From: a phage
Strand: one strand, 5' to 3'
DNA: 64,000 bases
Sequence record: OZ470804.1
Positions 1,611 to 30,166 of the stretch are shown one piece after another. How positions within the stretch are numbered: position 1 is the stretch's first letter; each line of letters starts with the position of its first letter. The notes beneath the pieces were generated by a model, which worked only from the letters and a program-made list of their open reading frames with translations, was not told the DNA's origin and ran no database searches. A program made the translations under genes and the position numbers.

Positions 1611-3086
1611 GTGAGAAGAATGGCAGATATTACAGAAACACAAGAAAGCTTACCACCATTTAGAATGGGTGAAGTAGGTTCTTTGGGTCTGAAGGTTAAG
1701 AATGGAAGAATCTATGAAGAACCTCGTCAGGCACTAAGGTTCCCTGAAAGTATTAAAACTTTCCAATTAATGATGCGTGACCCTGCTGTAGCAGCATCTG
1801 TAAATATTATTAAGATGTTTGTCAGAAAAGTCAACTGGAGATTCGTACCTCCAAAGGGAAAAGAGCAAGACCCTAAAATGCTTGAAAGAGCAGACTTCTT
1901 TAATTCTTTAATGGATGACATGGAGCATGATTGGGCAGATTTTATTAACTCTGTAATGTCATTCTGCACTTATGGGTTCTGTGTTAACGAGAAAGTTTAT
2001 AAGAAGCGTCAGGGTAAAAAAGGAAAGTACCAGTCAAAATTTGATGATGGTCTAATCGGATGGGCTAAATTGCCAATCAGAAACCAGTCAACGCTTGATA
2101 AGTGGTACTTTGACGAAGACTTTAGAAAAGTTACTGGTGTTAGACAGAATCTGAGAAATGTTTCACATATTGCTGGGGCAATTAATCTTGGAGAAAGACC
2201 ACTAACAAGAAAACTTCCACGAGCTAAATTCATGCTGTTTAAGTATGATGATGAATATGGAAACCCAGAAGGCCGTTCACCATTACTTAATGCCTATGTA
2301 CCGTGGAAGTATAAAGTTCAGATTGAAGAGTATGAAGCTGTTGGTGTTTCAAGAGACTTGGTAGGTATGCCAAAGATTGGTTTACCACCAGATTATCTGG
2401 ATGAAAATGCAGAACCTGAAAAGAAAGCTTTCGTACAATACTGCAAAACTGTTGTTAACGATATGATTGCTAATGATAGAGCAGGCTTAATCTGGCCTAG
2501 ATATATCGACCCAGATACTAAAGAGGATATTTTTGAGTTCTCATTAGTTTCTAGACAGGGTGCTAAAGCATACGATACAGGTTCTATTATTGACAGATAT
2601 TCTAAGCAGATTATGATGGCATTTATGTCAGATATTCTTGCTATGGGTCAGTCAAAATACGGTTCATTCTCTCTTGCAGATTCTAAGACAAGCTTACTAG
2701 CAATGTCAGTAGATATTCTGCTGAAGCAAATTAAGAACGTAATTAACCGTGATTTAGTTGCACAGACTTATGCTCTTAATATGTGGGATGATGAAGAACA
2801 TGTGCAAATCACATATGATGATATCGAAACTCCAGACCTTGAAGCAATTGGTTCTTATATTCAGAAGACTGTTGCAGTAGGTGCTTTGGAAGTTGACAAA
2901 GAGCTATCTAACAAACTTAGAGAGCATATTGGTCTTCCTCCTGCTGATGAGTCTCATCCAGTATCTGAAAAGCTTTCTCCGAATAGCCAAAGCCGTTCAG
3001 GAGATGGTTATAAGACCGCTGGAGAAGGTACTGCAAAGACACCTTCAGCGAAAGACCCAAGCACAGCAAATAAGGCAAATAAATAA
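1611..3086 (+). CDS. portal protein
   Basis: 491-aa ORF starting 8 nt after terminase stop and preceding protease/capsid genes; canonical position and size. Confidence 0.7.
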   Translation: MRRMADITETQESLPPFRMGEVGSLGLKVKNGRIYEEPRQALRFPESIKTFQLMMRDPAVAASVNIIKMFVRKVNWRFVPPKGKEQDPKMLERADFFNSLMDDMEHDWADFINSVMSFCTYGFCVNEKVYKKRQGKKGKYQSKFDDGLIGWAKLPIRNQSTLDKWYFDEDFRKVTGVRQNLRNVSHIAGAINLGERPLTRKLPRAKFMLFKYDDEYGNPEGRSPLLNAYVPWKYKVQIEEYEAVGVSRDLVGMPKIGLPPDYLDENAEPEKKAFVQYCKTVVNDMIANDRAGLIWPRYIDPDTKEDIFEFSLVSRQGAKAYDTGSIIDRYSKQIMMAFMSDILAMGQSKYGSFSLADSKTSLLAMSVDILLKQIKNVINRDLVAQTYALNMWDDEEHVQITYDDIETPDLEAIGSYIQKTVAVGALEVDKELSNKLREHIGLPPADESHPVSEKLSPNSQSRSGDGYKTAGEGTAKTPSAKDPSTANKANK

Positions 3087-3586
3087 TGGCTGAAGTTATC
3101 TCTATTTCAAATGCTACACGAGTGCATTCGTATAGAGGTGTCCTTATCATTACTGATAAGTTATCTGTAGAGGCTGGCTCAAGGGTCAGCCTTTCAGGTT
3201 ATGTTAGTGATGGTGGAGTCTCTGACGTTTTCACTATTTGTAGGTTACTTGATGCACCAATGAGTGGAAAACCGTTTATTTCAGGAAATTGTAGTGAAAT
3301 TGTTAAAATTCCATTTGACAGTTCATGCCTTTTGGGTGTAAAGTTATATAACTGCGAGAATAAACGTATCAATGTTAAAAGCATTGAAGCCGCTTTCATT
3401 ACCCTCGACACTGCATTTCAATCTCCAATGACAGTTAATAAAGAAACAAACAGACTTGAATACATTTTTTCACAAAATGATTACAAAGTACTTGTCAAAG
3501 GTAAAGTATATGATATGATTGTAAATGTGGTAGATGAATCTGGTAACCATTCAACAGTCCTTAAACAAAAAGTAAGGTTTAATTAA
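3086..3586 (+). CDS. hypothetical protein (head module)
   Basis: 166-aa ORF, start overlaps portal stop; no motif recognised. Confidence 0.4.
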   Translation: MAEVISISNATRVHSYRGVLIITDKLSVEAGSRVSLSGYVSDGGVSDVFTICRLLDAPMSGKPFISGNCSEIVKIPFDSSCLLGVKLYNCENKRINVKSIEAAFITLDTAFQSPMTVNKETNRLEYIFSQNDYKVLVKGKVYDMIVNVVDESGNHSTVLKQKVRFN

Positions 3587-3918
3587 TGGGAACATTAACT
3601 ATTGATGGTAAGAATAAAATCCTCGCCACGCTAACCCCAACGACTATTATTTTACACAATGTAGACCCAACGGCAGACCCTACAGCAAATAAGGTTACTC
3701 AGCCAGTGGCTATTTATTTTTCTGAACCGGATAATGGCTTAATTGCCTCAGAAGACACAGTTAATATTACTGTTCCAGCTTCTGCAACGGTCTCACACTA
3801 TAGCTTGTGGGATGCTAACGATAAATGCGTGGCAACTGGTGCTCTTAGCAAACCTCAATTCTTTGCTGAAGAAGGTATCTATGTTATCTCTTCAGTCTCT
3901 GTAGATTTAAACAAATAG
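3586..3918 (+). CDS. hypothetical protein (head module)
   Basis: 110-aa ORF, translationally coupled to upstream gene. Confidence 0.4.
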   Translation: MGTLTIDGKNKILATLTPTTIILHNVDPTADPTANKVTQPVAIYFSEPDNGLIASEDTVNITVPASATVSHYSLWDANDKCVATGALSKPQFFAEEGIYVISSVSVDLNK

Positions 3919-19283: not shown

Positions 19284-20432
19284 ATGGCAGTAGGTGAAAT
19301 TCAAATTAGTGCCTTGCCTCAAGCAGCCTTACCGATTGACCTTAGTGATATCTTCCATCTTAAACAGGGTATCGAGGATAAGAGATGTACTCTTGAGCAA
19401 CTACTTGCTCCACACTCAAGCCTAAGAAATAACCCTCATGGTGTTACTAAGACACAAATTGGTCTAGATAATGTTATTAATGCTCTTCAGTTAGTTGCTG
19501 CAAATAACTTATCAGATATTGTTAATGTAGCTGAGGCAAGAGCAAATCTACAGATTATGTCTTCAGAAGAGGTTAATAGCCTTATTCAACAGCATATTAA
19601 TGACAAGAGCAACCCACACAATACAACTAAGGCGCAGGTTGGTTTAAGTAATGTCCAGAACTGGACAACATCTAACCTTTATAATGAAGATGCAGATAAG
19701 TATGCTACAGCAAGAGCAGTAAATAACTTGTACAAGGCTGTTCAGGCTTCTTATCCAGTAGGTACTATCCATCTCTCTATGAATCCTGCAAACCCTTCTA
19801 CATATTTAATTTGTGGAGGTACTTGGGAGTTAGTTTCAAAAGGGAGAGCACTTGTAGGTTATGATAGTGATTCTAGGCCAGTTGGTTCAACGTTTGGTTC
19901 ACAGACTACTGCACTGACGGTTAATAACATCCCTGCACATACCCACTCAGTGTATGTCACTGGTGGTGGTCACACTCATGGTGCAACGGCCTCTATCAGT
20001 GCTTTTGACTATGGTACTAAAGGGACTACAACGTTTGACTACGGAACCAAGACCGTATCTACTTACGACTATGGCAACAGAACAACAAGTGCTGCTGGCT
20101 TAACACAAACAACATTCATTAACCGTGGCTATGCTGATGGTGGTTGGAGAGGTTTATCGGTTGAGGGGGCAAGCTATGACCCAAGAGCTACGCTGACAAC
20201 AGCTAACAACCACACTCACTCTGTAGCAATTGGTGCGCATAATCATACGGTTGGTATTGGTGCTCACAGCCATACTGTTGCAATTGGTTCCCACAACCAC
20301 TCAGCAACAGTAACAGTAACCGGAGCAGGTGAGCATTCGCACTCTGGCACAACTGGTCCAACTGGTTCTGGTCAAGCATTTAGTGTTGAACAGCCATCCT
20401 TTGTATTGTATGTATGGCAGAGAACAGCTTAA
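19284..20432 (+). CDS. tail fibre protein with His-x-His repeat tip
   Basis: N-terminal repeats NPHGVTKTQIGLDNV / NPHNTTKAQVGLSNV; C-terminal HTHS, HNHT, HSHT, HNHS, HSHS repeats; C-terminus homologous to next gene. Confidence 0.85.
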   Translation: MAVGEIQISALPQAALPIDLSDIFHLKQGIEDKRCTLEQLLAPHSSLRNNPHGVTKTQIGLDNVINALQLVAANNLSDIVNVAEARANLQIMSSEEVNSLIQQHINDKSNPHNTTKAQVGLSNVQNWTTSNLYNEDADKYATARAVNNLYKAVQASYPVGTIHLSMNPANPSTYLICGGTWELVSKGRALVGYDSDSRPVGSTFGSQTTALTVNNIPAHTHSVYVTGGGHTHGATASISAFDYGTKGTTTFDYGTKTVSTYDYGNRTTSAAGLTQTTFINRGYADGGWRGLSVEGASYDPRATLTTANNHTHSVAIGAHNHTVGIGAHSHTVAIGSHNHSATVTVTGAGEHSHSGTTGPTGSGQAFSVEQPSFVLYVWQRTA

Positions 20433-20442
20433 TTTCTTTACA

Positions 20443-20462
20443 GGGGCTTTATAGCCCCTTTT
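20443..20462 (+). terminator. terminator-like hairpin between tail fibre genes
   Basis: GGGGCT / AGCCCC stem with TTAT loop followed by TTTT. Confidence 0.45.
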
Positions 20463-20478
20463 AAGAGGAAAATTTATA

Positions 20479-22833
20479 ATGGCAGATTACAAGTTGAGTG
20501 AATTAAACTCAATTGATACAATTCGTTCAGACGACCTTCTTCATGTCAGGGTTAAAAAGAGACCTGAAATGCTGGGTGATGAAGACCGTCGAATGACCTA
20601 TCAAGACTTCTTAGCATCTTTTAAACTAGAAAGGTTTGTTCAGATTGCTGGTAGCACTATGACGGGTGACTTAGGAATTGTCAAGTTACTTTATAGTGGT
20701 AAGGCAGTATTTGACCCTACAGGCTCTTCTGAGATTACTATGGGGGATGTTTTAAAGGCTTTTAAAATCAATGCAAACGGTCTTAAACTGACTATTGCAG
20801 ATGCTTCAAGGTCTGCAACTGTTTATCATACTCTGAATAAACCAAGTCCTAATGAACTTGGGATGAGAACTAATGAAGAGAATGATGCAAGATATGCAAG
20901 GCTTGCTGTAACAAACACATTTAGAGGTACTCAAGCTATTCTCTCTGACAATGAAGCCCTTATTGTTAAGAATATTACACAAGGAATGCCGCTGTATATT
21001 CGTGGTCAAGATGCAGATGGTACTAATAGGTGGTATCTAGGCAATGATAATAGGGGTACAGATAATCTGGTTATCAAAAATGTCAAATCCGGTGCGTATT
21101 TAGCTATTTTGGATAACCTAATCTCTGTGAACAAATCAATCCAAATTACTGGTCAAGTTCAGCCTTCTGACTTATCTAACTTAGATGCTAGATACTTTAC
21201 TCAGACAGCAGCTAATCAGAGATTTGCACAGTTAACTGCTAATAATACTTTTAGTGGTTTAAATACATTCAGCAACGCTGTTAACATTAGCTCTAATGCT
21301 GCTGCTATCATGCTGCAAAATAAATCTACAAATGAATCTTTATTCATCCTAGCAAAAGACAGTGAAAATAATAACTTGTGGTATATTGGGAAGGGTAGTG
21401 CAAACTCTAATATCACATTACACGATTACAAAGGTAACACCTCGATTGTCTTAGACTCGTCTGGTGCTACATTCAACAAGTCTGTAAAAATCACTGGTCA
21501 AGTTCAACCTTCTGATTGGACTAACATTGACTCTCGTTATGTTCTTGTTGGTACTTATACTAACCTTGCTAAGAAGAACGAAGCAAACTACTTCACACTA
21601 CAACAGAATATTCAGTCCGATGGTGAAGCATTAAGAATTTACAGCAAAGTCCAGAACAATGCTTCTTACATTGTTGGTAAGAATACTGATAACACTAATA
21701 AGTGGTACATTGGTTGTGGGACAAATGGTTCTGGTATTGCATCTTTCCATAACTACTTGACTGGTGCAAGGATTGATTTGTCTGATGAAGTCCTTCTGTC
21801 TAAATCTTTACAGATTAATGGACAGGTAAAACCTTCTGATTGGTCTAACTTAGATGCTAGATACTTCACTCAGTCAGCAGCTAATCAGAGATTCATGCTT
21901 GCAGGTTCTACAGGGAATGGCACAGAGCAGAATGCAGATGGTGTGGCATGGAACGCTAAAACAGGCTTATATAATGTAACATCACCAAATGGTGATTACA
22001 CATCACTTGTATTTCAAATGTATCAGGCGGTGCCATCTTCTACTGCCTGTGCGCAACTAAAGTTCCAGTATAAAAACGGTGGAATGTGGTACAGAACATC
22101 TGTAGATAGTAAAGGCTTTGAAGCTAAGTGGTCTAAGATTTACACAGAGGCTCAGAAACCAACCCCTTCAGATATTGGTGCATATACTAAAACTGAGACT
22201 GACCAGAAGATTGCGCAGGCGGTAAGTGACTCTACAGACCTTAACAAAATCTATCCAGTAGGTATTGTGACATGGTTTAACAGCAATGTTAACCCTAACA
22301 CAGCACTGCCTGGTCTAACTTGGACGTATCTGAATAATGGTGTTGGTAGAACTATCAGAATTGCAGCAGCAAATGGTTCAGATGTTGCTACAACTGGTGG
22401 TTCAGACTCTGTGACGTTAGCTGTTGGTAACTTACCTTCGCACACGCACAGTTTTTCTGCGACTACCTCATCGTTTGACTACGGAACAAAAAACACTAAC
22501 ACAACTGGTGCTCACACACACTCTGTAAGTGGCTCTACTTCATCTGCTGGTCACCACAACCACGCTATCTCGTGGATTGGTCAGAACTCTACACACTATT
22601 CTGGTGGTGGTGGTGGTAGAATCGGTACAGGTCCGGGTTACACTGATGGTGGTGGTGACCACACCCACTCTGTAAGTGGTACTGCTGGTTCTGCTGGTAA
22701 CCATGCTCACAGTGTTGGTATTGGCGCTCACAGCCATACAGTTAGCGGTAACACTGGTGGTACAGGTTCTGGTTCAGCATTTAGTGTTACTAACCAATTC
22801 TACAAGCTAATGGCTTGGGTGAGAACTGCTTAA
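20479..22833 (+). CDS. long tail fibre protein with internal repeats and His-x-His tip
   Basis: 784 aa; three ~110-aa internal repeats each containing ITGQVQPSD(W/L)(S/T)N(L/I)D; C-terminal HTHS/HHNH/HAHS/HSHT cluster; last ~25 aa match upstream fibre. Confidence 0.85.
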   Translation: MADYKLSELNSIDTIRSDDLLHVRVKKRPEMLGDEDRRMTYQDFLASFKLERFVQIAGSTMTGDLGIVKLLYSGKAVFDPTGSSEITMGDVLKAFKINANGLKLTIADASRSATVYHTLNKPSPNELGMRTNEENDARYARLAVTNTFRGTQAILSDNEALIVKNITQGMPLYIRGQDADGTNRWYLGNDNRGTDNLVIKNVKSGAYLAILDNLISVNKSIQITGQVQPSDLSNLDARYFTQTAANQRFAQLTANNTFSGLNTFSNAVNISSNAAAIMLQNKSTNESLFILAKDSENNNLWYIGKGSANSNITLHDYKGNTSIVLDSSGATFNKSVKITGQVQPSDWTNIDSRYVLVGTYTNLAKKNEANYFTLQQNIQSDGEALRIYSKVQNNASYIVGKNTDNTNKWYIGCGTNGSGIASFHNYLTGARIDLSDEVLLSKSLQINGQVKPSDWSNLDARYFTQSAANQRFMLAGSTGNGTEQNADGVAWNAKTGLYNVTSPNGDYTSLVFQMYQAVPSSTACAQLKFQYKNGGMWYRTSVDSKGFEAKWSKIYTEAQKPTPSDIGAYTKTETDQKIAQAVSDSTDLNKIYPVGIVTWFNSNVNPNTALPGLTWTYLNNGVGRTIRIAAANGSDVATTGGSDSVTLAVGNLPSHTHSFSATTSSFDYGTKNTNTTGAHTHSVSGSTSSAGHHNHAISWIGQNSTHYSGGGGGRIGTGPGYTDGGGDHTHSVSGTAGSAGNHAHSVGIGAHSHTVSGNTGGTGSGSAFSVTNQFYKLMAWVRTA

Positions 22834-25750: not shown

Positions 25751-26110
25751 TTATGGGAACAAACACTTAATGTCATCGTTTTTGAAAACGAAACTTGTGT
25801 AGTTGTGACCATCAACATCTAGCCAAACAGCCTGAACATCTACACCATCAAGATTCTGGTAAAGCTCTTTGATGAAGTGGTCTTTCACAATCTGGCTACT
25901 AGTTGTTTCCAGCTTAATGTTGGAGATTGCTGAACCTACAGCCATATATCCCATGACACGTTTCTTCTCAGTATGTTTAATCTTACCATCTTTGTAAGCC
26001 ATAATGAGATTGGAGAGAATCTTCACACCATAATACTTTTCAAGGTGAGTAGGTACACCATAAAAGCCTAATGCAAAGTTTTCAGAGTGGATAATGTTTT
26101 CACGTTTCAT
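25751..26110 (-). CDS. hypothetical protein
   Basis: 119-aa ORF. Confidence 0.4.
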   Translation of the reverse strand: MKRENIIHSENFALGFYGVPTHLEKYYGVKILSNLIMAYKDGKIKHTEKKRVMGYMAVGSAISNIKLETTSSQIVKDHFIKELYQNLDGVDVQAVWLDVDGHNYTSFVFKNDDIKCLFP

Positions 26111-26111
26111 A

Positions 26112-26441
26112 TTAGTCTGCCAACCTTAAATTGAAATTAACACCAAATTTTTCACACACTTCCAACATATACTCAAGGGAAACATTCCCAGTGAGGTGGA
26201 TTATGTTGGATACACGAGCCTGAGAGATACCACAAATTTTAGCAACTTGCTCTTGAGAAAGACCTCTGGATTTAATCTCTCTCTTAAAACGATGTGCAAC
26301 GAAGTCTCTCATTTCGTCTACATCCATTGGACAAATATAACTCTCCATTTCAGCCTCTCTATCAGCCTCCCAATCATCTTGTGGGGCATAAGGGTCAAAA
26401 ACCTCATTCATCTTTCTTCTTCCGTTTGCGTGAAGTGTCAA
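26112..26441 (-). CDS. helix-turn-helix (XRE-like) DNA-binding protein
   Basis: SQEQVAKICGISQARVSNI resembles XRE-family HTH. Confidence 0.55.
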   Translation of the reverse strand: MTLHANGRRKMNEVFDPYAPQDDWEADREAEMESYICPMDVDEMRDFVAHRFKREIKSRGLSQEQVAKICGISQARVSNIIHLTGNVSLEYMLEVCEKFGVNFNLRLAD

Positions 26442-26616
26442 TCAATGAATCTATGTTTGTAGCCCTAACCTTTTCACGTTCATCGTTAAGATAATCGTCA
26501 AGAGCCTTTTCAATCTGTGAATCATCTTGACAGATAACTGTAAAGACTGTAAAGCCGTCTGTATCGTCAATTATCTTACCATAACCGCTTCTGGGATGTA
26601 ACTTTTTAAGAGCCAT
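26404..26616 (-). CDS. hypothetical protein
   Basis: 70-aa ORF with basic C-terminus. Confidence 0.3.
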   Translation of the reverse strand: MALKKLHPRSGYGKIIDDTDGFTVFTVICQDDSQIEKALDDYLNDEREKVRATNIDSLIDTSRKRKKKDE

Positions 26617-26617
26617 A

Positions 26618-27001
26618 TCAAATACCTGTGCAGCTTCTGTTTTCTAAGAAATATTCAACACCATACATAGCTTTTTGCATCAAATCTTCTTTAAACTGGA
26701 TACGATGATTGAGCATAACCTGTACATCAATATCATCATGGTGTTTCTCTTTAATATTTGCAGATTGCAGGAAATACTCTGCAAGAACGCGATACTGGTA
26801 GTCAGTCACCTTATCAGTCATCTCTGTCAAAGACTCTTCAGAGATTGGTTTAAGTAACTCGCCTTTAGATAGCGCAACACCTTTTACAATCTGGCAAGTG
26901 TCTTCTGAAACACCTGATAAGTCCACATTGGGAAGTTCTGTTGCACTAACTGGTAAACTCATTGCCATAACCGTTGCAGCAGCTAATAAAATCTTTTTCA
27001 T
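26618..27001 (-). CDS. secreted/periplasmic protein
   Basis: N-terminal signal peptide MKKILLAAATVMAMSLPVSA; first gene after candidate promoter. Confidence 0.5.
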   Translation of the reverse strand: MKKILLAAATVMAMSLPVSATELPNVDLSGVSEDTCQIVKGVALSKGELLKPISEESLTEMTDKVTDYQYRVLAEYFLQSANIKEKHHDDIDVQVMLNHRIQFKEDLMQKAMYGVEYFLENRSCTGI

Positions 27002-27045
27002 AATGACCTCAAAGTTATATTAAATTTTGTATTACATTGAGTATA

Positions 27046-27074
27046 AAAATAAGCTATAACACCTGACTTGTCAA
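27046..27074 (-). promoter_or_regulatory. sigma70-like promoter (TTGACA-N17-TATTTT) flanked by 9-bp inverted repeat
   Basis: On - strand TTGACA (27074-27069), 17-nt spacer, TATTTT (27051-27046); AAGCTATAA / TTATAGCTT inverted repeat at 27051-27059 and 27081-27089. Confidence 0.4.
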
Positions 27075-27091
27075 CAGATTTTATAGCTTAT

Positions 27092-27131
27092 TTGGCAGAT
27101 TTTTTATAAGGCTACTGCCATCCTTCCATAC
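27092..27131. repeat. 40-bp exact direct repeat, copy 1
   Basis: Identical to 28469-28508; contains TGGCAG-N16-CTGCCA inverted repeat. Confidence 0.9.
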
Positions 27132-27326
27132 CGAACCGTGCCTAACCTGACCATGCCACACCTTACAATACCAAACATTACTTAAAAACCCTCTTAGAAG
27201 ACTCTTAAGTGATGTAATCGAATTTTAATGTAGCTCCGATTAACTACCCATACCTGACCAGACCTTGCCAAACCTTACCTCACCCAACTACACCGAACCT
27301 CATTAAAAGACCCTCTTAAAAGACCT

Positions 27327-27352
27327 TTTAAAAAGGAGCCTCCGAAGAGGCT
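27327..27352 (-). terminator. rho-independent terminator (- strand)
   Basis: AGCCTC / GAGGCT stem with 4-nt loop; on - strand followed by CCTTTTT; immediately downstream of gene ending at 27364. Confidence 0.6.
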
Positions 27353-27363
27353 ACCTAGTCAAC

Positions 27364-27804
27364 TTAGAAAGGTTTTCTACGTTGCTTGTTAATGTTAGCT
27401 TTCATAGCAGCTAAATGGTTTTGCTGTTCAATCAGTCGTGAACGTTCTTGATGACTAAGCGCCATAGTGTTCACATTCTCAATTGCTTGAGTGGCTTGCT
27501 TTAAAGCTCGACCAATCTTACCAGACATTTTGCGTTTTGCAATAGTTGCTTGATGCTTAGGTTCAACCACACGATAACCAACACCCATTGAAGCAACCAG
27601 ATAAATCTTCTCTTCTTTAAGAAGCTTTTCAATAAACTTCTCAAGTCGGTTTAGACGTGTAAGTGCATAAGCCTTCATTTCATCTTCGTACTTAACAATG
27701 TCGCCTTGATAAGTTGGCTTCACAATACCTAAGAAGGTATCCATCTCAGAGTGTGATACAGTGTCACCGTAACTAAACTTTGCTGCTAATGCTTTTGTAT
27801 TCAT
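27364..27804 (-). CDS. hypothetical protein (repeat-flanked cassette gene 2)
   Basis: 146-aa ORF, basic C-terminus; no motif recognised. Confidence 0.5.
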   Translation of the reverse strand: MNTKALAAKFSYGDTVSHSEMDTFLGIVKPTYQGDIVKYEDEMKAYALTRLNRLEKFIEKLLKEEKIYLVASMGVGYRVVEPKHQATIAKRKMSGKIGRALKQATQAIENVNTMALSHQERSRLIEQQNHLAAMKANINKQRRKPF

Positions 27805-27806
27805 AA

Positions 27807-28412
<606 letters not shown>

Positions 28413-28468
28413 TTAGTTGATTGTTAATTTGTTTGTAAAGAACCCTCAACAGAAGACTCTTTAGAAAC

Positions 28469-28508
28469 TTGGCAGATTTTTTATAAGGCTACTGCCATCC
28501 TTCCATAC
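28469..28508. repeat. 40-bp exact direct repeat, copy 2
   Basis: Identical to 27092-27131. Confidence 0.9.
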
Positions 28509-28660
28509 ATTACCAAACAGTACTGTGCCACAACACACCATACCCAACCCCACCTAACTCTACCACACCTCATTAAAAGACCTTGTTTAAAGACCTTTTA
28601 AAAAGGTAAGTCTCATTTTAATGTAGCTGAGACTAACTACCCTTACCAGACCTAGCCTTG

Positions 28661-28720
28661 CCTTACCATACCGTACTTTACCTTACCGTACCGTACTTTA
28701 CCCTACCGTACCGGACAATA
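28661..28720. repeat. 20-bp tandem direct repeat x3 (iteron-like)
   Basis: CCTTACCATACCGTACTTTA / CCTTACCGTACCGTACTTTA / CCCTACCGTACCGGACAATA; strongly G-poor on + strand. Confidence 0.8.
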
Positions 28721-28838
28721 CTTAACCCGACCTCGCCCTACCGGACATCACTTAAAAACCCTTTTAAAAGACTCTTAAGTGATGCTGGTGAGTACCCGTT
28801 GGTTTATGCTGCTCAGTATACTCACCAAATTTTCTATG

Positions 28839-29027
28839 TCAACAACTTTCTAATAAAGTTTTATGAAGATTTTGCTTAACGACCCGCCTCACATGCCTGT
28901 GCTCTTTCTTAATAAAGAGTGACCTCTTCTTGATAGAGCGCCTATTCTTGTAAGTGTTGCTAGGGTACTTATCATGAACCGGACAACAGCCACCCGGATT
29001 TGTAAACTTGATAATCTCTCTTTTCAC
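28839..29027 (-). CDS. hypothetical small basic protein
   Basis: 62-aa Lys/Arg-rich ORF; overlaps a + strand ORF drawn across the repeat region. Confidence 0.25.
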   Translation of the reverse strand: MKREIIKFTNPGGCCPVHDKYPSNTYKNRRSIKKRSLFIKKEHRHVRRVVKQNLHKTLLESC

Positions 29028-30166
29028 TATTCATAATCCCTAATAACTAGCCCAACAGGGAACTGTAAAGACCCCTTACGAGTCATCTTCTGGAACTGAA
29101 CCGTTAAAGGCTTCCCGATAAACTCTTCAGGATGCTCAGCAAGATACTGTTTCTTCTCGTGTGTAGTTTTCCATGAAACATCTACAAAGACGTTAGGAAG
29201 AGTCTCTACAACGAACTTGCCATGACCACGCTTATCAGTCTTTACACCAGTCACTTTAAACTCTTCAGTGTGCATCTTCTTGTGCTTAATCAAGAAGTAT
29301 GAACGGTGACAACACTCGTAGAAGGAGTCTTCAGAGATTGAGCGGTACATTGCACCTTCAAACTCAGCTTCAACCCACTTATCATGAGCTTCATCAAACT
29401 CTTCCCAAGAATTTACACGACGAGACTTAACAGGAACAACTTTACAGCCATCTCTAAAGTCATTCAATGGTGAAGTCTCAATAATATCTCTACGCTCAGG
29501 CCACGTCTTAGTGCTGTCACAGATATCATACCAGTAAAACTTGAGTAAATGTCGGTCAGGATTGTCTTCATTTTTAATCATGGAGACAATATCTTCTAAA
29601 TCCAACCCATGAGCATAGATTTCACCATCAAATTCATCAACGTCTTTATGGAGCCTCAACATTGCCATAATGTCAGGTATTAGTTCAGTAGGAATTTTAT
29701 AAATAGTGTTCTCACGAGAATATGCTGTAAATACACTGCCAATACTTAAGTGTCTTGAAATTCTACAACGTACACCATCCAGTTTTGGTTGAGCATCAGC
29801 AGGGAACTTCAAATACTTTGCATGACTAACCTTTGCAGCATCATGAGCAAGCTGTACACCTACCTTCTCAGTATTCTGTGCAGACTCTTTTGTGTAAGCA
29901 TAACCTTTACGGTCAACTTGCTTTTTATACTTAGCAGAAACTTCAAAGAGAGCTTGCTGTTCAGCATTACGCTCATTCTTTTTACCGATGTTTTTAGGTT
30001 CTGCTGTATACTCTTCAAACATCATCTTGCCATTTTCTTTACCGTAGGTTGTAATAACTTTGTCACCTACAGCGACACATGACCAGACGTTGAAAGAACC
30101 ATCTTTATTTTGTTTGTACAGAATTGTCATTTTTAACCTCTGAGTGATACCAAGTGTAACAAGCAT
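29027..30166 (-). CDS. ATP-dependent polynucleotide ligase (DNA ligase-like nucleotidyltransferase)
   Basis: Motif I KLDGVR, motif III FDGEIY, motif IV EGAMYRS, motif V LIKHKK. Confidence 0.7.
   Translation of the reverse strand: MLVTLGITQRLKMTILYKQNKDGSFNVWSCVAVGDKVITTYGKENGKMMFEEYTAEPKNIGKKNERNAEQQALFEVSAKYKKQVDRKGYAYTKESAQNTEKVGVQLAHDAAKVSHAKYLKFPADAQPKLDGVRCRISRHLSIGSVFTAYSRENTIYKIPTELIPDIMAMLRLHKDVDEFDGEIYAHGLDLEDIVSMIKNEDNPDRHLLKFYWYDICDSTKTWPERRDIIETSPLNDFRDGCKVVPVKSRRVNSWEEFDEAHDKWVEAEFEGAMYRSISEDSFYECCHRSYFLIKHKKMHTEEFKVTGVKTDKRGHGKFVVETLPNVFVDVSWKTTHEKKQYLAEHPEEFIGKPLTVQFQKMTRKGSLQFPVGLVIRDYE

Follow-up and report, generated by a model that had tools for sequence, protein, structure and literature searches.

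Hairpins in both flanks of the vipr-vap1 cassette of a Felix O1-like phage as probable 3' tail pseudoknots of VIPR guide RNAs

The window, by which we mean the whole 64,000-nucleotide stretch of DNA analysed here, comes from a Felix O1-like myovirus (Felixounavirus) and is 92-94% identical to many GenBank records. A two-gene cassette, vipr-vap1, has DNA ligase on one side and, on the other, a block with DHFR and thymidylate synthase at its end; every gene in the region lies on the minus strand (Table 1). Each flank of the cassette is made of two units in tandem, each about 120-180 nt long (repeat families D1, D2, D5 and D11), which on the minus strand consist of a 34-39-nt X or Y box, a G/T-rich GGY-NN tract with a strict 5-nt period, and a hairpin tail of about 35 nt. 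In-phase GGT pentamer tracts are found in these four units only in the whole 64 kb. The Y box is an A/U-rich inverted repeat of 10-14 bp (CATCACTTAA...TTAAGTGATG), and in the X box there are two GGTCTTTTAA-like direct repeats together with the palindrome CCTTTTTAAAAGG. Both boxes contain weak -35/-10-like hexamers that would be placed for a start at the first repeat and that score below the promoter-scan threshold. The boxes may be promoters, RNase sites or Vap1 sites, and for the Y box a promoter or a processing spacer may be among the candidates. Within the guide tract of vr-a, the series TACGG TACGG TAAGG TAAAG occurs twice, and relatives have a 16-unit version of the same guide.

Table 1. 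Features of the vipr-vap1 locus, listed in minus-strand order (positions are those of the window)
Feature	Position	Strand	Description or basis
Promoter-like site	28815..28842	-	sigma-70-type, TTGACA-16-TATACT, 11/12 consensus matches; upstream of first array and vipr-vap1; predicted
Y box leader before vr-a	28746..28784	-	CATCACTTAAGAGTCTTTTAAAAGGGTTTTTAAGTGATG, inverted repeat; repeat analysis
vr-a guide tract	28641..28745	-	21 YNNGG pentamers, 17 canonical; internal duplication
vr-a 3' tail, class B (copy 2)	28607..28642	-	hairpin 28628-28634 with 28609-28615; pseudoknot GUAGU 28636-28640 with GCUAC 28623-28627
X box leader before vr-b	28573..28606	-	CCTTTTTAAAAGGTCTTTAAACAAGGTCTTTTAA, two GGTCTTTTAA-like direct repeats; repeat families D1, D5
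vr-b guide tract	28503..28572	-	14 pentamers, 9 canonical; NN code fits the DNA of class C2 tails in rival elements
vr-b 3' tail, class C1	28469..28504	-	stem GGCAG/CUGCC, pseudoknot AAGG:CCUU
vipr	27807..28394	-	195 aa, RAMP-like, polymerises on GGY repeats; ~98% identical to PDB 36pp_D
vap1	27364..27804	-	146 aa VIPR accessory protein; 145/146 identical to SUSP1 gene adjoining vipr; phrog_5926
Terminator-like hairpin after vap1	27330..27352	-	intrinsic-terminator-like hairpin and T-run; terminator scan
X box leader before vr-c	27303..27336	-	repeat analysis
vr-c guide tract	27248..27302	-	11 YNNGG pentamers, 10 canonical
vr-c 3' tail, class A (copy 1)	27214..27249	-	hairpin 27235-27241 with 27216-27222, G.U 27236/27221; pseudoknot GUAGU 27243-27247 with GCUAC 27230-27234
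Y box leader before vr-d	27176..27214	-	flagged as long A/U-rich, terminator-like hairpin
vr-d guide tract	27126..27175	-	10 pentamers, 9 canonical
vr-d 3' tail, class C1	27092..27127	-	tail alignment

Parts of such units have been annotated before as anonymous repeats. The GenBank feature 'DR_4' of phage wV8 (L030, 801-858 and 2194-2251) corresponds to a class B tail plus an X box, and in Danish wastewater phages a 'repeat_region' covers parts of units (L001, 3666-3698; L002, 3765-3811). Elsewhere in the window, the in-gene direct repeats at 20204-22743 (D3, D4, D6 and D15) resemble the repeats of Felix O1 genes 76 and 77 (PMC3185647) and are unrelated to the hairpins.

The first gene of the cassette identifies the system. 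The window Vipr differs by 4 substitutions in 195 aa from chain D of PDB entry 36pp, 'SUSP1 Vipr protein' (phmmer, E 6e-128), and a profile built from 31 diverse Vipr homologues also retrieves this chain (E 2e-78). The published RNA (GGY)-contact residues, H17, E71, M72, R138, C173, D177, W178 and R179, are present, and the AlphaFold model of the protein has a pLDDT of 93.5. Pfam gave no family for Vipr or Vap1, PHROGs gave unnamed families only, and Rfam 15, run over 26000-30000 at a permissive E-value, gave no relevant family. Distant Vipr homologues (37-40% identity) on metagenomic viral contigs also have GGY-NN tracts beside them, in at least two cases (L026 and L021), which shows that gene and tracts belong to a single conserved module. 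In one of these loci, of higher G+C content (L026, Vipr 37% identical), such tracts precede each of three genes (2361-2480, 3053-3290 and 3752-3822) and each ends in a T-run, without an A/U-loop hairpin, which makes the pentamer tract universal and the pseudoknot tail specific to a clade. A further Vipr homologue with 43% identity (protein P0044) is annotated on a 362-kb contig of Rhodococcus globerulus, in keeping with reports that VIPR has spread to cellular genomes.

VIPR, for Viral Interference Programmable Repeat, is described as a system made of a minimal RAMP-like Vipr, an accessory Vap and vrRNAs of about 100 nt, in which 9-16 YNNGG repeats are followed by an invariable 3' tail (10.64898/2026.04.26.720920). 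In that account, the protein keeps hold of GGY, and double-stranded DNA is read through the NN dinucleotides, skipping one base in each unit, the outcome being transcriptional silencing of competing phages and satellites (10.64898/2026.04.26.720920). For SUSP1, the 2026 VIPR preprints report that the vrRNAs are expressed, co-purify with Vipr and silence their targets, that one Vipr protomer is bound per repeat, and that changing the GGY of the guide to AGY or GAY abolishes silencing. Small-RNA-seq placed one SUSP1 vrRNA upstream and three downstream (10.64898/2026.04.26.720920); our own parse of the SUSP1 locus, with one tail upstream and three downstream of vipr-vap1, agrees with this published 1+3 arrangement. 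The tail of the SUSP1 clade was predicted to form a hairpin and a pseudoknot, with compensatory changes in five tails (10.64898/2026.04.26.720920, Fig. 2E and S9), and tail hairpin, pseudoknot and covariation are reported for the clade in both preprints (10.64898/2026.04.26.720920; 10.64898/2026.04.26.720927, Fig. 2 and S8). By cryo-EM the RNA pseudoknot was seen, with the 3' pseudoknot capping the filament, and the subunits adjacent to the tail are those that are always ordered during DNA engagement (10.64898/2026.04.26.720920 / 10.64898/2026.04.26.720927).

An earlier note on this DNA had described two hairpins with the same loop and different stems, and both are present where it placed them. 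Read on the plus strand, copy 1 has the stem TAATCG (27215-27220) / CGATTA (27237-27242) around ATTTTAATGTAGCT (27222-27235), the AATCG/CGATT of the earlier note being the inner 5 bp of this stem. In copy 2, AGTCTC (28609-28614) and GAGACT (28629-28634) form the stem around the same 14-mer (28615-28628), and AACTACCC follows both hairpins (27242-27249 and 28635-28642). The exact 14-mer occurs at these two sites only in the 64 kb, and looser matches to it (up to 3 mismatches) are at chance level. When the two copies are aligned in register, two-sided compensatory change is seen at only 2 stem positions. The folding energies on the minus strand correspond to z-scores of -1.0 and -2.5 and are weaker on the plus strand, from a folding tool that cannot model pseudoknots. 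By themselves the two copies in the window are thus suggestive of a structure and not conclusive; it is the tails of the relatives that make the structure convincing.

On the minus strand, the tail of copy 1 (vr-c, 27249-27214) reads GG-GUAGU-U-AAUCGGA-GCUAC-AUUAAAA-UUCGAUU, and the stem described earlier corresponds to columns 9-13 paired with 30-34 of a 36-column tail alignment. The sequence AACTACCC becomes GGGUAGUU on this strand, and its GUAGU is complementary to the GCUAC of the loop. Covariation points to an H-type pseudoknot, in which the loop GCUAC would pair with the GUAGU directly after the last repeat. The loop had been taken for a sequence-specific one. A single-stranded recognition sequence does not account for its conservation if GCUAC pairs with the upstream GUAGU, and the loop would then be conserved because it forms one strand of the pseudoknot.

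We collected 100 tails from 24 loci, namely the window, 18 IMG/VR Felixounavirus contigs, fjerdesal, bumzen, SUSP1, wV8 and FO1a. The tails collapse to 20 distinct sequences in four classes. Class A has the stem AUCGG/UCGAU and class B the stem GUCUC/GAGAC, both with the pseudoknot GUAG:CUAC; class C1 combines GGCAG/CUGCC with AAGG:CCUU, and class C2 combines GGUAG/CUACC with GUGG:CCAC. RNAalifold, given the 20 distinct tails, independently predicted the 5-bp core stem, with two-sided changes in all five pairs. Under the model of hairpin plus pseudoknot, 90.4% of cells are paired, against 29-41% when the partners are slid by 1-3 columns, and two-sided changes are found in 10 of the 12 pairs, counts that stem from few independent compensatory substitution events since the four classes are paralogous repeat variants within which the stems hardly vary. 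None of 500 shuffles reached the covariation score. The covariation analysis across related phages that the earlier note had proposed therefore bears out its central claim of a selected nucleic-acid structure, with stems complementary in all four classes. Its claim that the element recurs in both flanks of a two-gene cassette is likewise confirmed, the tails of vr-a and vr-c flanking vipr-vap1.

Several pairs also report on the strand. In class A, most phages have G.U as the closing pair, two have G-C and one has A-U, and the pseudoknot pair 7/16 is U.G or U-A. Such G.U pairs are legal on the minus strand alone, which makes this the functional strand; the folding energy is also lower on the minus than on the plus strand. 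A protein-binding hairpin of RNA or DNA had been suggested. The part that stands is that the hairpin belongs to a protein-bound RNA, while binding at the level of DNA does not agree with G.U pairs that fit only a minus-strand RNA. The class B and C1 tails of the window are identical in sequence to tails of SUSP1 (L028). By analogy with SUSP1, from which the ends and the strand of the vrRNAs are carried over, the element is the putative 3' end of a guide RNA encoded on the minus strand. The earlier description of hairpin and loop was accurate, and it left unconnected the adjacent (GGY-NN)n tract, which is the defining part of a vrRNA.

The tails have also been exchanged in nature. A guide of the vr-a type, with the same NN string, is followed by a class A tail in two phages (L001 and L014) and by a class B tail in another (L009) and in the window; a second guide occurs with A or C1, and a third with B or C1. 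Since the same guide carries different tails in different phages, the stems appear to be interchangeable carriers of one fold, and exchanges of this kind speak for classes A, B, C1 and C2 as functionally equivalent versions of one structure. A rule that adjacent tails in one array differ in class was considered and rejected, as SUSP1 has two adjacent class B tails.

The locus has the features of a type II VIPR of the SUSP1 clade, for which more than 90% Vipr identity is the criterion (about 98% here). An accessory gene (vap1) adjoins vipr, the flanks carry YNNGG vrRNAs with conserved GGY and hypervariable NN, and the 3' tail of about 40 nt has a hairpin and a pseudoknot whose pairs we infer here. 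Natural targets are matched at 80% or more of NN positions by vr-d, vr-a and vr-b, with no self-target. We conclude, with a probability of about 0.92, that the two hairpins are stems of the 3' tail pseudoknots of two vrRNAs of this clade. The element is one already known, being the vrRNA 3' tail pseudoknot described in the 2026 VIPR preprints.

We argue that minus-strand expression would run from the promoter-like site through two vrRNAs, vipr, vap1 and the terminator to two more vrRNAs. The 5' ends of the vrRNAs could be set by the weak promoter-like hexamers in the X/Y boxes or by processing. The tail may fix the end of the Vipr filament, hence its register, and probably also protects or defines the 3' end of the vrRNA. 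The text of the 2026 VIPR preprints reports no tail mutants, so that roles of the tail as cap, in register and in protection are inferred ones.

We searched for targets under the published rule of one nucleotide skipped per unit, with at least 80% of NN positions matched. The 10-unit code of vr-d has an exact match (20/20) in a satellite-like contig (L031, IMGVR_UViG_2579779076_000012), the only hit in IMG/VR, and the matched stretch spans the ribosome-binding site and the start codon of an ORF in the satellite. In the same contig vr-a matches 34/42 positions (81%), with the skipped base at codon position 3 (wobble), and vr-b matches 24/28 (86%) in the DNA of the satellite's own class C2 tail (L031:430-471, minus strand). 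Maxima in shuffled sequence were 16 for vr-d, 26 for vr-a and 19 for vr-b, the last with a 13-unit version of the guide for which 24/26 was observed. Such matches show predicted satellite targets for guides of the window; 24 of about 60 distinct guides from other loci also match this contig at 80% or more. No guide has a self-target at 80% or more in the window, the best self-matches being 62-75%, and the exact pattern of vr-c with a 1-nt skip had no match in IMG/VR and GTDB genomes. Across the 24 related loci the NN strings differ widely and GGY is kept.

The contig carries an integrase, a tape-measure homologue and baseplate-hub-like genes, and matches the satellite described in the VIPR preprint. 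At 400-600 on its minus strand lies a solitary vrRNA with a promoter (TTGACG-17-TATAAT), about 10 pentamers and a C2 tail, followed by a separate intrinsic terminator, and no vipr gene was found within the 11 kb examined. The satellite's own guide reaches at best 14/20 in the window, which is no evidence of helper targeting. When 5,426 complete E. coli genomes were searched by BLAST with the downstream flank, for satellites with shared tails, no match was obtained.

That tail DNA may itself be a target is raised by vr-b. Besides the satellite, two elements have class C2 tail DNA that fits the NN code of vr-b: another Felixounavirus at 26/28 positions (L009:2374-2430) and SUSP1 at 23/28, in its vrRNA1 (L028:944-1000), about 70 bp upstream of vipr. 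Against its own tails the code scores only 19-20/28, and the window has no C2 tail. Among the 61 other guides, the best match to any tail has a median of 58% and reaches 82% for a related guide, followed by 68%, so that vr-b is a clear outlier among the 62; 5 of its 14 GG positions are non-canonical. All copies of the vr-b guide examined (the window, SPJ41, REP8 and the Vipr-less vB_CECAV_041) end in C1, and 20/20 other vipr-bearing loci examined have C2 in the slot where the vr-b copies have C1. The copies of the guide form one haplotype, so that linkage is a sufficient explanation for the association with C1.

One or two complete vrRNA-like units, each with box, GGY-NN tract and tail, lie after the ligase gene and before the next gene in two genomes without vipr and vap1, Salmonella phage FO1a (L029, 1265-1392) and vB_CECAV_041 (L032, 560-842), and the latter keeps the anti-C2 guide. 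Megablast found no second vipr-like place in these two genomes. Their units may have been left behind when the cassette was lost, or may be orphan guides that work with the Vipr of a co-infecting phage. It is a tentative idea, and one that we consider unlikely, that tail DNA is a target in an arms race of VIPR against VIPR, in which differences between tail classes would be escape variants that keep the RNA fold and the orphan vr-b might use a rival's Vipr. If it were true, the compensatory differences in stem and pseudoknot would change the DNA target while the RNA fold was kept, and Vipr-less Felixounaviruses with an orphan vr-b might shut down the vipr operon of a co-infecting rival through the rival's own Vipr.

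The tail could instead be mainly an RNA processing signal, at which a host or phage RNase, or Vipr itself, cuts the array in a Cas6-like manner, a role compatible with that of a cap. The tandem vrRNAs have no strong promoter match between units, the class A and C1 tails have no U-run after them, and other VIPR types are reported to have processed vrRNAs and staggered and hammerhead-separated arrays (2026 VIPR preprints). On the other side, the solitary vrRNA of the satellite needs no release from an array, yet it has the same tail; the boxes between units hold hexamers that, in our own sub-threshold reading, are aimed at the first repeat; and no nuclease is reported for type II loci. Processing as the main function therefore seems doubtful to us. 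The missing U-runs count against a different reading, that the hairpins are intrinsic terminators or attenuators around the cassette. For copy 2 this has some appeal, as GGUAAG can pair with CUUACC to lengthen its stem, after which UUUUU follows, but the extension relies on a hypervariable guide unit. The loops are 12-16 nt, and the tails lack the combination of a GC-rich stem, a 3-8-nt loop and a U-run within 0-2 nt by which intrinsic terminators are recognised. The terminator scan flagged only the hairpin after vap1 and one Y box, and the satellite vrRNA has a separate canonical GC-rich terminator 8 nt downstream of its tail; we regard termination as highly improbable.

The hairpins might also be palindromes acting in DNA, as sites for recombination and shuffling of the cassette or for a DNA-binding protein, for example Vap1. 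In about half of the Felixounavirus records vipr-vap1 is missing and no more than 19-34% of the locus is left, and in the records of wV8 and several Danish phages the units are annotated as direct repeats only. The number of units per flank varies from 1 to 3 between loci, so that recombination between units evidently takes place. Such recombination is better explained as a by-product of tandem homology of about 120 nt. The G.U pairs (G.T in DNA) would be A.C mismatches on the other strand, covariation of a pseudoknot has no meaning for duplex DNA, and the VIPR preprints saw the pseudoknot in RNA by cryo-EM, which leaves a DNA-level function very unlikely. Scarcely credible is the view that there is no selected structure and that a few palindromic repeat alleles are inherited together. 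It can point to the mere four classes with near-invariant stems and to the weak thermodynamic z-scores, but four stems and three pseudoknot helices stay complementary in register where the slid controls collapse, the G.U of class A has become G-C and A-U in separate phages, and published structural evidence exists for the pseudoknot (2026 VIPR preprints).

Other candidates were dropped along the way. The 5-nt periodicity prompted the ideas of replication-origin iterons, a TRAP-like site (triplet plus 2-nt spacer), an antisense rut site and a G-quadruplex, all of which were abandoned after the match of Vipr to the PDB entry. A genome terminus or packaging array (T7 SRL/SRR-like, with TAAAGACC-like boxes) was rejected, as the mapped 608-bp DTR of the Felix O1-like UAB_Phi87 starts next to a tRNA cluster and the vrRNA locus is ligase-proximal, not at the genome ends or DTR. 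A CRISPR array or solitary CRISPR repeat was also set aside: in place of 28-37-nt direct repeats with unique contiguous spacers and Cas6-type processing, the units are about 122-180 nt with pentamer guides, Rfam 15 gave no family in 26000-30000, and only two genes lie between the arrays, both 98-99% identical to SUSP1 vipr and vap1 and neither with a Pfam match.

Taking the hairpins as vrRNA tails, we would like to stress what the locus contributes. VIPR is a newly reported form of RNA-guided DNA recognition, proposed to be older than CRISPR, and the tail is its sole invariant RNA element. To VIPR the window adds arrays arranged 2+2, a fourth class of stem, tails swapped in nature on identical guides, and a guide aimed at a rival tail; the predicted targeting of rival tail DNA by vr-b is the one detail that is possibly new. 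The covariation table provides ready mutant designs for testing tail function.

Compared with the type II VIPR of SUSP1, the locus has about the same Vipr (~98%) and Vap1 (99%), the same YNNGG tracts, identical class B and C1 tails placed directly 3' of the last repeat, and the same class of satellite target. It differs in having two vrRNAs upstream and two downstream instead of 1+3, and the class A stem of copy 1 is absent from SUSP1. In its upstream terminal slot there is a C1 tail where C2 is usual, and vr-a, at 21 pentamers, exceeds the 9-16 quoted for VIPR because of its internal duplication. The tail resembles the 3' handle of class 1 crRNAs (types I-E and I-F, bound by Cas6), since both are conserved structured caps beside a variable guide in a helical filament of the RAMP family, and stem covariation between repeat families is likewise known for class 1 crRNA repeats. 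However, the window has neither a Cas6-like endonuclease gene nor acquisition machinery, and the CRISPR handle is a simple hairpin next to a contiguous spacer, whereas here a pseudoknot adjoins a discontinuous NN code in pentamers. Like a Rho-independent terminator, the tail is a short stem-loop with which a small RNA ends on its 3' side; it differs in its large loop, its A/U-rich stem and the lack of an obligatory U-run, termination in the satellite being left to a separate element. Promoter-early stem-loop (PeSL) cassettes reportedly flank variable genes in T4-type phages (Arbiol et al. in 2010 are said to have described them). PeSLs are DNA modules of promoter and terminator thought to mediate recombination. 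Like them, the units described here are repeated intergenic stem-loops that flank a cassette present or absent among relatives; unlike them, they encode protein-bound guide RNAs, and their stem is part of an RNA pseudoknot.
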